A DNA stretch of 28,758 nt. Source: a virus. Positions 21,001 to 24,000 of the stretch are shown here, one piece after another. How positions within the stretch are numbered: position 1 is the first letter of the stretch; every line of letters begins with the position of its first letter. Location: the UHGV virus genome UHGV-0099614, one strand, 5' to 3'. Made by a program: the position numbers.

Positions 21001-24000
21001 GTTATTCGAATGGCTGGGCGCGGCATGAGATAAAAAAAGAAACACTTTCTGTCACTGGCTTTCATGCTGTAAGACGCATACTAAAAGCCGTTCAGGCATC
21101 AAGGAAAGACAACTACAAATCTAAGCGGCAGATACAGCGTACATTAAAACGGCAAGACATAAATCGCTCACCAATCGCCCCATTCGAAGCACCGTTAATT
21201 AGCAAGCACGATTGGGACTTATCAGTGATAGCGGTCACCAAAGAGGCAGAGACAGAGCGTAGGGAGTTACTATCCTCACAGATAATAAACTCGAACAAAG
21301 TACAAACCCACCCGCTGTTAAGGATGTTAAGAAAAGCACGAGTGAGAGCATCCAGAGCCAGAAGAGAAAGCGGAGGTTATGACCATTACTACTAGTAGTG
21401 ACAGATCGTGACAAGGCAGAGCAAAAAACGACCAATAATAAGAGAAATATGCCTGCCAAACAGCCAAAAGCGCGGAGCGCGGCAAACGCAGCGAGAGGCG
21501 CAAGAAGGCGAACCTATCCATTGAAACGGTCAGAAGAGCGCATCGCGCTCGATGACCGGAGTCCCAACTAACACCATCAATAAAAGATCAAAGTCTTAGA
21601 AAAAAATGATTTTCCATTGATGGGCATCCATCCGTAAAAATCAATTTTTTAGAAAAAGTACTTATAGAAATTAATCACTTTATAAGAATGTGTTGACGTT
21701 AGCAGGCATCGCTTAAGCTCATCATTAATTACATAAAAAACAATCCAATAGAGATATCTGGCAATCAAAACCCCAGAAAAAAACCATCAACATAACATCA
21801 ACTTTATAAGCGATTTTACCGGTATTTCTTAGGTTGAATTCACGTAGAAATCTCAGTCGTGAATTTAAACCACATAGAAGCAATTTTTTGCATAATTGTA
21901 CCTGAGTTAGTTTCCTTTAACATGTTACTTAACCATCCCAAAAATAAATCCAATGATGATCCTCAGGTCAGACGGGCGATATTGATACCTTACCTGGCAG
22001 TACCTGGCAGTCGGCTGTGCCTAAAGCGGACGTTAGGAATAAACCAATGACGAGCAGGTCACATCATTGGTTAAGGGACACAGCTTGTACCAATTTATAT
22101 TTTTGATTGTTCTAAATCCAATCACTATAATAGTTCATCTGACAATGATTAACTTGCTTCAATACTCCCTTGCTCATCTATTTTTTTACCATTCTGACAA
22201 GCAACCAGGCTCTCATTACATGCTTTAATATCCAGAAAATGTCCTATTGTGAACTCAGTAGTCAGCAATGATATCAATTCCAAGTATTTACGAACTCTTC
22301 GAGGCATATCTATTACATTATAGATTAGTAATGCTAATCTTTGTTCAGCAGTTTCACCATCCAGATTAACTATTGCAGAGCGACAGCAATAATTAAAAAC
22401 ATGCTCAACATATCCATCATACCGTGGATTGTGTGCTCTACCACCAGCTAAAATAGCTCCATCTATGCAAGCCATCACTGTTACGTTTCTCACAATTGCA
22501 GTTAGGTAGTTTAGAGAAGATCCTGTTGCAGAAATGGTTTCTCCATATTTTTCCATAAACTTGAATACTAAGTATGTATCAGAAATTTCTGCTGAGCGGC
22601 TGAGATATAATATATCATCATACAAAATTGGAACAGGTGTACCCGAAGATAAGTTAGTTTGAATGCTTTTTTTTCTTTCCGGCAAAGATAAAGAGTTTAA
22701 AATCCTCATGACAAAGGAATTCATATTTGCCGTTGGATACTCTGAACTATACGCTAATTCACACATCAAATGGTCAATGCTAAGCAATGGGATACTATTT
22801 GCTATAGAAAGCTGGAAGGTAGAGTAAACAGCCCAATCAACCAAATCTCTTACTTTAACTAATAACTCTGGTGTATCTGCTGGTTTCAGCGGTTCTACTG
22901 TTACAAATTCAAGTAATATCTGGAGATTATGAATAAAATCACATGAATCCCTTCGAATATCTTCAGATGTGACTCTATAAAGTCCTTTATCAGATACACC
23001 TATAGACATGTAGTCTTCTCTTAGAATATTTTCAATCCACCCTTCCAATACTTGCTTTGTATATTTACATACAATTATTTCTATATTCGAATCTACTACA
23101 GCTGAAGAAAAACCCATTAATGAGAAATAAACAGCCGTATACACATCAATAATTACCTTATTTGGTGTTTCTTCTCCACTATTGAATAACTCCAAATATT
23201 TGGTTGATGTAATTGACGTTAAATGTGTTATAGCCCCTCTTACAGGGTCTGTAGGATCCGTAAAATTGCCTTTCATCGTTAAAGGTATATTGGGGGTATG
23301 CAATACTGCATCCCTTTCTTTATCTTTCGTAGAATATCGTTTTAGAATATTCTCAAAATAAGGAATGAATTCCTCTTCATGAGGAGGTAGAGAAAATTGT
23401 CTGAAAACATCAGTACCATCGTTACCTTTACTGCGAAGCTCCACAGCCTGCCTAAATACTGCGACGTAAGGAGGCACACGCTTAATCATTGTAAAGTCAC
23501 CAGAACAATCTCCTTCCTGCATATTCTCGAGAATCTGTCCAAGTGGTGACTCTATTTCCAACAAGCACGGATGACTAGCCTCAACGTCACGTACAAGAAT
23601 TCGGGTAAATGTTTCAAACCCATCAGAATATGTAATACCATCCCCACACTTATTAGGGACAAGTGGATTACTATTAACTTTTTGGCTATTTATCAATGAG
23701 TTTGCGTGAATCTGGGTCAAAGGCTTTGCCACTTTTACTGGGTTTTGGACAAACCAATCAACAAGCACTCTCTCTGCAATGTGTATATCAATATAAGTCG
23801 CTATTTCATTAACTAATGTGATCTTTGACTCATCGTAGGTAGAAAAAATAACTTCTGGGATCTCAAAAACAATTTCTTTAAGAAATTGCGCATCCCCCCC
23901 ATTTTTTCTTGATGTGTGCAGCAATAAGTACCAGGAATAAGGGTTGTTTGGTGAAATTTCAATTGCAAATCTGATCGATTTTATTGATAGCTCATATTCA

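Follow-up and report, generated by a model that had tools for sequence, protein, structure and literature searches.

A conserved non-coding arm 3′ of an HUH nuclease gene in an Escherichia coli argW island: candidate cis-acting sites for rolling-circle DNA processing

We analysed a window of 28,758 nucleotides (UHGV virus genome UHGV-0099614) that corresponds to the Escherichia coli chromosome around argW (tRNA-Arg CCU, 3913–3987), focusing on the 753-bp gap (21396–22148, 38.8% GC) that follows the gene for a histidine-hydrophobic-histidine (HUH) nuclease, Rep, in a small integrated island. The first ~460–500 bp of this gap (21396 to ~21855/21900) is the conserved non-coding 3′ arm of a portable cassette whose genes are orf64, orf128 and Rep. 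The most economical explanation, which we hold to be about as likely as not, is that this arm is the set of cis-acting sites on which the nuclease would act in rolling-circle DNA processing. Because free-plasmid relatives of the cassette already have a ColE1-type origin, housekeeping replication is less likely than a conditional process that amplifies or exports the element so that it spreads horizontally, of the kind known for phage satellites or mobilisable elements.

Results

Backbone and cargo parts of the gap

The gap is bordered by the Rep stop codon (21393–21395) and by the stop, at 22149, of a 1094-aa gene on the minus strand, and it consists of two parts, backbone from 21396 to ~21855–21900 and cargo flank from ~21900/21998 to 22148. 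Similarity to the other ~520 genomes stops ~460–510 bp into the gap, and for the sub-lineage L009, L010 and L014 it runs on to ~21997. This backbone extension (21856–21997) is common only to that sub-lineage, other lineages losing homology at ~21855–21905. The last ~150–250 bp of the gap is simply the 3′ flank of the GapS6 cargo.

An earlier note on this DNA had described the whole gap as an AT-rich, repeat-bearing region with no convincing open reading frame (ORF), and as a possible origin or control region. AT-richness applies from 21530 onward (31–35% GC), whereas the first 134 bp have 51% GC. The absence of a gene is directly supported: ORFs of 57 or 38 codons, opening at a conserved (A/G)TGACA, stay whole in some E. 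coli, are frameshifted in Sakai and are 7–37 codons long in the other Rep allele, they lack a start codon in the q and y relatives described below, and they are not kept in relatives. A small protein gene in 21398–21571 was accordingly rejected on the frame-breaking indels, in-frame stops and start-codon loss that relatives show.

Both repeats were found where the note had placed them, ACTTTATAAG at 21677–21686 and 21801–21810, and TACCTGGCAG twice at 21991–22010 with TACCT before it. Chance was estimated from 1000 dinucleotide shuffles of the gap. A single exact 10-mer pair in 753 bp is at chance level, the four exact 10-mer pairs seen are mildly unusual (mean 0.62 per shuffle, P = 0.028), and a 10+10 tandem duplication was never reached. 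As an origin repeat the duplication nonetheless had to be given up, being not conserved and lying in the cargo-specific part of the gap, exactly at the backbone/cargo junction. The ACTTTATAAG pair fared better: a paired word, TyTrTAAG, occurs twice, ~120 nt apart, in the plasmid (p) and yicC (y) clades, although Klebsiella L006 lacks copy 1. The signal proper comes from features absent from the note, namely GC hairpins at 21470–21558, which have compensatory changes, and a conserved core at 21590–21672. What survives of the proposed origin or control region is a conserved non-coding element, bearing hairpins and repeats, that is tied to the HUH Rep, while its role as an autonomous replication origin is weakened.

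Anatomy of the conserved arm

Three modules (A, B1 and B2) were defined from 14 lineages, including the 67%-identical Klebsiella copy. Module A (21396–21558; 51% GC over 21396–21529) opens just 3′ of triple stop codons with GTGACA-GATC-GTGACA (21398–21413, plus strand), of which the TGACA word is kept across clades. Its hairpin 1 (21470–21501) is a two-tier GC structure, GCGC..CGCGGC-aaac-GCAGCG..GCGC, with one mismatch in the window copy. The stem reads CGCGGC/GCCGCG in Rep allele 1, GGCGGC/GCCGCC in allele 2 and in the p and y clades, and GGCGGT/ACCGCC in the q clade, which amounts to two compensatory events. Hairpin 2 (21527–21558) has the form CGGTCA-gaa-GAGCGC-atc-GCGCTC-ga-TGACCG; among E. 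coli lineages its stem is constant and its loop free (atc, tcc or ctc), and the p/q/y clade has GGCGC-tcc-GCGCC, an A·T↔G·C swap. In Klebsiella L006, homology to the window stops just past the GGTCA arm of hairpin 2, beside a cargo insert.

At least four independent compensatory double changes were counted in three GC hairpins, with loops of 3–4 nt that vary, and these structure-preserving substitutions around free loops indicate selection on the structure of the arm. The covariation term of RNAalifold was +1.2 for module A, with one compensated pair, and covariation was absent from B1/B2 (term +2.66). A known RNA or structured small RNA was rejected, as there was no Rfam match in the gap and no covariation in B1/B2. 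As single-stranded DNA (ssDNA), both strands fold better than shuffles (z = −4.2 and −3.4).

Module B1 (21590–21672, plus strand) is the most conserved core and is made up of AAAGTCTTAGAAAAAAA (21590–21606), GATGGGCATCC (21619–21629), GTAAAAATCAA (21634–21644) and AAAAAGTACTTATAGAAATT (21653–21672). Past it lie copy 1 of ACTTTATAAG (plus strand), which in CT02-type lineages is the right arm of an inverted repeat, CTTATAGA/TCTATAAG, and TTGACGTTA (21693–21701, plus strand), which repeats the CGTCAA word in inverted form and occurs in p/q/y too. The variable AT-rich stretch that follows (21702–21784, 34% GC) keeps its composition but not its sequence. Module B2 (21785–21851, plus strand) comprises CATCAAC-N4-CATCAAC in an 11-bp register (21785–21802), copy 2 of ACTTTATAAG (21801–21810), GGTTGAAT (21832–21839) and CACGTAGAAAT (21841–21851). 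This module, including the tandem CrTCAAC, is kept in all 14 lineages, Klebsiella among them. Iteron co-variation between CATCAAC and CGTCAAC was considered and rejected, since the variants belong to a single linked haplotype and each is present once in Klebsiella.

Scans for host signals gave little. Integration host factor (IHF) sites were rejected, as the whole window matches WATCAANNNNTTR a single time (2.6 matches expected) and this match is not conserved across clades. Promoter-like sites were not enriched (9 against 7.1 expected), and the terminator scan found none inside the gap, where no hairpin has a following T-run.

Conservation, linkage to Rep and mosaic history

Conservation of the arm and its linkage to Rep are direct observations. 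Of the 31 sources where the B1 pattern was located (window included), 24 have it 238–248 nt past the Rep stop, and the orientation of the 3′ arm relative to Rep is fixed. Among E. coli lineages B1 is 87–93% identical, compared with 50–65% in the neighbouring variable segment, and its blocks can be discerned in Klebsiella L006 and also in p/q/y. Rep itself occurs as two alleles whose proteins are 50% identical and whose synonymous sites are saturated (proportion of synonymous differences 0.72–0.76). Module A diverges with the allele but goes no further than 63–65% identity between alleles, which points to constraint, B1 is ~90% identical across alleles, and the B2 of the window is closer to allele-2 loci than to its own Rep-allele relatives.

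With blastn, 21396–21910 had no match among 72,556 plasmids, and the arm had none among 50,697 phage records. The arm as a mimic of a phage cos or pac site or of a plasmid origin of transfer (oriT) was rejected on the lack of any match in these phage and plasmid collections.

Several loci document how the arm has been rearranged. In L014/L020 the island is rearranged, alpA through Rep being deleted and the int′–IOLG segment inverted, and modules A and B are 86% identical to the window; these loci were rejected as an independent, Rep-free use of the arm, since they represent a rearranged, decayed island instead. In the O157:H7 lineage, Rep is truncated to residues 112–350 by P22-like prophage remnants (Sp16) and the 3′ arm is kept; such cases comprise L005 (O157:H7 Sakai 3197490–3198442) and several hundred O157/O55 genomes. 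In Klebsiella L006, module A is separated from module B by a three-gene cassette (11189–12835) that has the 9-bp direct repeat TGAGCTAAC on either side. The first protein of this cassette matches PADLOC PDC-M68A/HNH effectors, and the usual cargo slot past B2 is almost empty in this locus (~227 nt).

Relatives on plasmids and at yicC

A profile search led to a wider Rep clade at 25–32% identity, one member of which is on a free 6,377-bp circle (L040/L041). Two 6407-bp contigs, each overlapping itself by 30 bp at its ends, came from different samples and are exact circular permutations of one another, and the same backbone is found in complete PLSDB plasmids of 5.3–6.3 kb. Homology between two plasmid backbones and an island at yicC extends from 40–90 nt upstream of orf68, the orf64 homologue, to 270–570 nt past the Rep stop; the 3′ non-coding arm therefore belongs to the mobile unit. 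Judging from these alignments, the unit that moves between contexts is orf64–orf128–Rep together with the 3′ arm. Between the window and these relatives, identity is 43% for orf64, 40–49% for orf128, 26–29% for Rep and 44% for the resolvase, and gene order matches. No distant Rep relatives were found in IMG/VR.

The relatives carry the blocks of the arm in window order: TGACA, GGCGGC-aaa-GCCGCC, GGCGC-tcc-GCGCC, AAAGTCCTAGAAAAAAA, GAAGGGCATCC and GAAATCAA, with ACTTATA, TTGACGTTA, CAACGTAAGGTC, TyTrTAAG and CGTArAAAT as further ordered blocks. The counterparts of B2 in p, q and y are CAACGTAAGGTC, TyTrTAAG and, 40–41 nt on, CGTArAAAT, which in p lie past an inserted gene. Local alignments of the arm reached z = 6–11 against shuffles, and no shuffle attained the observed score.

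The Klebsiella plasmids L040/L041, L042, L043 (NZ_AP022186.1) and L044 (NZ_CP073059.1) hold an orf68–orf126–HUH cassette plus the 3′ arm. As well as a ColE1-type origin, they carry a resolvase and a MerR-like helix-turn-helix (HTH) gene; they have no assigned type and are called ‘non-mobilizable’, and all their genes are annotated as hypothetical. The ColE1-type origin block of the plasmid relatives matches more than 5000 Col plasmids at 71–73% identity, and one of the matching plasmids encodes Rop; Rfam RNA I was not detected, and the window island has no counterpart of the block. The yicC island (L035–L038, ~5710–10900) consists of int, small ORFs, Rep, a 560-nt arm, a 58-aa ORF and alpA, without a serine recombinase.

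The Rep enzyme and the 5′ part of the cassette

Rep (20343–21395, plus strand, 350 aa) is a rolling-circle Rep-class HUH nuclease, matching PF23343 REP_ORF2-G2P with a score of 29.7 bits (cutoff 27.8, E = 8.4e-7), a family that its distant relatives also match. The order of its motifs, I (uuTLT), II (HUH) and III (YxxK), places the tyrosine C-terminal to HUH, as in the HUH Rep class. Motif I (T86/L87), H130-x-H132 and Y191-x-x-K194 are invariant or nearly so in relatives down to ~20% identity, and the ratio of non-synonymous to synonymous substitution rates (dN/dS) is 0.13–0.37, so that an intact enzyme under selection is directly supported. The family is rare, with 31 matches in 1.84 billion representative proteins.

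Of two AlphaFold models, the first (predicted local distance difference test, pLDDT, 39) was not used, and the second has a usable core only (core pLDDT 75–89). The best Foldseek matches to this model were NS1, adeno-associated virus (AAV) Rep, geminivirus/circovirus Rep, TnpA of IS608, RAYT and RepB, all of them weak (best E 7e-3), with no relaxase among the fold matches. No sequence match was found in the PDB. Pfam Relaxase scored 17.3 bits (E = 0.006), under its cutoff of 24.6, and the classical relaxase layout, with the tyrosine N-terminal to a three-histidine motif, does not apply, Tyr191 being C-terminal to HUH.

The first cassette gene, orf64 (19697–19891, plus strand), encodes a small excisionase/MerR-like HTH protein whose plasmid counterpart, of 68 aa, occupies the same position. 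It has a weak TIGR01764 match, and its relatives are named ‘DNA-binding protein’ or ‘MerR family’ in RefSeq. The second, orf128 (19888–20274, plus strand), corresponds to the 126/127-aa proteins of the p/q plasmids and the yicC island and has no match in Pfam, PHROG or NCBIfam.

Between orf128 and Rep lies a 5′ hairpin (20287–20313), AAAGCCGACT-ttgcgag-AGTCGGCTTT, with a perfect 10-bp stem. Comparison with the orf126/Rep interval of L040, L042, L035 and L043 gives GCCCGCT-ttgcag-AGCGGGC in p/q/y, with two compensatory pairs and a semi-conserved loop of 6–7 nt, TT(A)GC(G)AG. The terminator scan flagged this hairpin as terminator-like on the minus strand only. From its form it is a candidate for an alternative nick hairpin, or for an attenuator or terminator.

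Cargo flank, duplication and recombinase arm

The tandem duplication of TACCTGGCAG (21991–22010, plus strand) marks the backbone/cargo junction, the point at which homology to the backbone stops. A single TATCTGGTCA stands there in L009, and all of the 22 E. coli genomes that carry GapS6 are 100% identical at the duplication and in the flank to 22148. A target-site duplication was rejected, the copy being missing at the other, right-hand cargo boundary. We read the duplication, from its distribution, as a private slippage event or junction scar and not as a conserved origin repeat. The cargo-specific 3′ flank of gapS6b (22011–22148, minus strand) is found only in GapS6-carrying genomes. Within it, an inverted repeat, CCAATGA-N13-TCATTGG (22047–22073), lies, on the minus strand, ~75 nt downstream of the stop codon of gapS6b and is followed by TTTATT; it may be a weak terminator of the cargo operon, and the terminator scan did not flag it.

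The cargo itself, gapS6b plus gapS6a (22149–25775, minus strand), is an anti-phage system in a variable slot. GapS6b scores 1064 bits in NCBIfam against a cutoff of 850, and the presence of the GAPS6 gene pair is indicated by gapS6a/gapS6b annotations in identical RefSeq loci and by Pfam PIN-TPR-GreABC and HetE-N matches. The right backbone arm contains a serine recombinase (26755–27381, plus strand), the homologue of the plasmid resolvase. Just upstream of its gene, CTCAATAGGGT occurs three times at 26626–26748, and these copies include a perfect 16-bp inverted repeat (26663–26678/26733–26748, 54 nt apart). These repeats are probably res-like or operator sites of the recombinase.

The island and its setting

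Two elements stand in tandem 3′ of the argW tRNA gene. Element 1, between argW and the island, is prophage-like, with its own integrase (4113–5306) and a CI-type repressor (15947–16663). Element 2, the small island, starts with a truncated integrase (17983–18279) of which the last 98 codons are left; int is complete in relatives, such as those in strains EBJ003 and 1504D004, and because of this truncation the copy in the window is probably unable to self-excise. The remnant is followed by a 251-aa IOLG-like ORF, alpA (19184), orf63, orf64, orf128, Rep and the gap, and 3′ of the gap by gapS6b and gapS6a (minus strand), a small ORF, the serine recombinase and attR (27516–27538, plus strand), a direct repeat of the argW 3′ end (3965–3987). 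An integrase gene overlapping a 246–251-aa ORF and followed by alpA is seen in the window (17983–19375) and also in L003, L004 and L006.

Rep was found at the argW locus in 542 of 5426 complete E. coli genomes (~10%). The genes past the gap vary by strain (Sll1717-type ATPase, GTPase pair, AIPR, DpnII-MboI, HNH and others), which marks the island as a defence-cargo carrier with a conserved backbone, and recent horizontal spread is indicated by an island core that E. coli and Klebsiella share at 90–100% identity. The island has no gene for a coupling protein or a type IV secretion system (T4SS). Literature searches found no published description of the argW island, of the Sakai locus tags or of HUH satellites.

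Discussion

A possible mode of action and the points against it

Rep-class HUH nucleases recognise hairpin DNA. From the arrangement of the cassette we infer how binding, nicking, strand choice and biological purpose might be joined. In a circular, supercoiled form of the element, the GC-rich hairpins at 21470–21558 would extrude, or would fold in ssDNA, and so position the protein. Rep would then nick one strand, either in the AT-rich core at 21590–21672 or in the loop of the 5′ hairpin at 20287–20313, and rolling-circle synthesis from the 3′-OH would give single strands or concatemers, with the hairpin cluster possibly priming the complementary strand.

Several results weigh against the arm as the site set of Rep. 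Known nick consensus sequences (CTTGATA, TACTACGAC, TAATATTAC, TAGTATTAC, pT181 and Ff sites), did not occur above chance in 20270–21900, and the loops of the 3′ hairpins, at 3–4 variable nucleotides, are poor candidates for a nick loop; the 5′ hairpin appears, by its loop and stem, at least as good a nick-hairpin candidate as any feature of the gap. Module A diverges with the Rep allele, but B1 and B2 are similar across the 50%-identical Rep alleles and the 26%-identical clades and do not co-vary with Rep; recognition by a host factor or a generic mode of recognition fits this at least as well as Rep-specific binding. A decayed island retains the arm without Rep. Inserted genes split the sub-blocks at A/B1 in Klebsiella L006 and at B1/B2 in the p plasmids, a tolerance that compact origins do not usually show. 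Since a ColE1-type origin is present in the plasmid relatives, the HUH cassette is accessory there and their vegetative replication does not need it. Unbiased repeat enrichment in the gap is modest (ATCAA seven times, P = 0.017), and the CRTCAA count was a post hoc choice, made after inspection of the data.

Alternative explanations

In one alternative, which we consider rather unlikely, the nick site, the double-strand origin (dso), would be the 5′ hairpin, and the 3′ arm would be a host-recognised single-strand (lagging-strand) origin or priming signal, formed by the GC hairpins, with an AT-rich enhancer. It would agree with the semi-conserved 6–7-nt loop and the two compensatory stem pairs of that hairpin across clades, with an arm that is conserved whatever the Rep allele, fixed in orientation to Rep, maintained in its hairpins by compensation and folding above shuffles as ssDNA, and with insertions between sub-blocks, which fit independent modules. 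The hairpin is equally a possible terminator or attenuator between orf128 and rep, however, and RNAalifold sees no covariation in B1/B2, so that only module A looks structural. An origin of transfer, with the HUH protein as a Rep-type relaxase like the MOB_T relaxases of Gram-positive integrative and conjugative elements (ICEs), orf64 and orf128 as relaxosome accessories and a helper conjugative system that would transfer the excised island or the small plasmid, is unlikely in our estimate. For it speak the accessory position of the cassette on ColE1-type plasmids that have no other mob genes and are typed ‘non-mobilizable’, the small HTH gene 5′ of the nuclease gene, the AT-rich blocks adjoining inverted repeats, and the sub-cutoff Relaxase match. 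Rep has the motif order of Rep proteins, however, not of MOBF/P/Q/V relaxases; its fold matches include no relaxase, the island lacks a coupling protein and T4SS, and to our knowledge Rep-type relaxases are not documented in Enterobacteriaceae. The blastn search of 72,556 plasmids also returned no match to any oriT known there, but the oriTs of islands are largely unknown and distinct from plasmid oriTs (bioRxiv 10.64898/2026.01.13.699239), and this favours the transfer explanation.

We think it improbable that the arm works at the transcriptional or RNA level, its hairpins as 3′-UTR (untranslated region) stabilisers or terminators that shield the Rep operon from convergent transcription of the cargo, and its AT-rich blocks as operators for AlpA or orf64. 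Convergent units do flank the arm (Rep on the plus strand, cargo or small ORF on the minus strand), GC hairpins stand directly 3′ of a stop codon, and a conserved backbone beside a hypervariable cargo slot needs insulation; but no T-run follows any hairpin, the scan found no terminator in the gap, promoter-like sites are near expectation, and ~300 bp of primary-sequence conservation, above that of the coding gene, goes far beyond what a terminator needs. A site for recombination or cargo exchange by the neighbouring serine recombinase, which would account for the different defence genes just past the arm, is very unlikely. The arm and the recombinase arm do enclose the variable cargo, discrete points (A/B1, B1/B2 and past B2) have taken up insertions, one with a 9-bp direct repeat, and a 10-bp duplication marks the junction. 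However, no significant word is common to both arms (the best inverted match, 15/17, P = 0.05, is not conserved, and a pair of recombination sites flanking the cargo was rejected as neither significant nor conserved), the recombinase has its own repeats at 26626–26748, the yicC island keeps the arm without a serine recombinase, and cargo boundaries differ by sub-lineage, as expected for homologous recombination in the flanks. That the repeats are functionless chance features of an AT-rich spacer is scarcely credible for the gap as a whole. Chance alone predicts one 10-mer pair, only a single clonal cargo variant has the tandem duplication, and 6-/7-mer enrichment is not significant, but the cross-clade z of 6–11, the compensatory hairpin changes and the constant linkage to Rep rule chance out for 21396–21855. 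For 22011–22148 and for the tandem duplication itself, chance is the best reading.

Implications

The movement of small ‘integrase-only’ defence islands is an open question (PMC10121019). Extending the proposed role of the arm as the sites of the HUH nuclease, we suggest, tentatively and with more doubt than confidence, that orf64–orf128–Rep plus the arm may be an undescribed portable ‘launch’ cassette of Enterobacteriaceae, giving otherwise immobile elements a conditional rolling-circle mode. If so, the argW and yicC defence islands and the ‘non-mobilizable’ ColE1-type plasmids would make ssDNA or concatemers that hitchhike on a helper phage or on conjugation, the arm would be the origin of the cassette and the adjacent slot a hotspot for exchange of defence genes, and satellite-like or mobilisable elements based on a Rep-class HUH enzyme would constitute a new family. 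A Rep-linked conserved cis element that is common to small Klebsiella plasmids offers a testable handle, with a candidate site, a candidate enzyme and a natural free replicon, and it flags a small-plasmid family annotated solely as ‘hypothetical protein’.

Comparison with known systems

The free-living relatives of the cassette are ColE1-type plasmids of 5.3–6.4 kb; the window differs from them in having no ColE1-type origin, and in the plasmids the HUH cassette is an unannotated accessory. The origin of Staphylococcus aureus pathogenicity islands and other phage-inducible chromosomal islands (SaPI/PICI) lies immediately 3′ of the island initiator gene, with repeats that flank an AT-rich stretch. 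CrTCAA words likewise flank the variable AT-rich stretch at 21702–21784 here, whereas SaPI Rep is a helicase that acts on iterons in theta-type replication, and the window has an HUH nuclease and modestly enriched repeats. In MOB_T systems such as NicK of ICEBs1, one Rep-class HUH enzyme and one cis site serve both transfer and plasmid-like rolling-circle replication of an excised integrative element, with small accessory proteins. NicK differs from the present enzyme in family (PF02486 versus PF23343) and in host phylum, no conjugation genes are nearby here, and the cis site lies 3′ of the gene.

Double-strand origins of rolling-circle replication (those of pMV158 RepB, Ff gene II protein and geminivirus/circovirus Rep) share with the cassette an HUH gene beside short GC-rich hairpins, repeated words (here the CrTCAAC tandem with its 11-bp register) and an AT-rich segment; the Pfam family that Rep matches is that of G2P of filamentous phages, and Reps of viruses and plasmids are nearest to it in fold. 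Unlike those origins, the arm has no known nick motif, its loops are of 3–4 variable nucleotides, it is conserved independently of Rep divergence, its sub-blocks tolerate gene insertions, and its relatives on plasmids depend on an origin of ColE1 type. An M13/Ff origin homology was rejected, the best match (22/26 bases, P = 0.027) occurring in one lineage only and without conserved IHF sites.

In layout, the nearest system is that of the satellites named PICMI (phage-inducible chromosomal minimalist islands) of Vibrionaceae, which have, in the same order as the argW island, int, an integrase-overlapping ORF, alpA, small ORFs, a replicase and defence cargo, and whose replication is described as consistent with rolling-circle concatemers (bioRxiv 10.1101/2023.07.18.549517). 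PICMIs differ in having a primase (DUF3987/DUF5906) and a fis site, whereas the island described here has an HUH Rep, argW and a serine recombinase and no primase, and a helper phage or packaging is not known for the argW island. The island thus resembles PICMIs in its layout and rolling-circle origins in its list of parts, and stands outside both groups.

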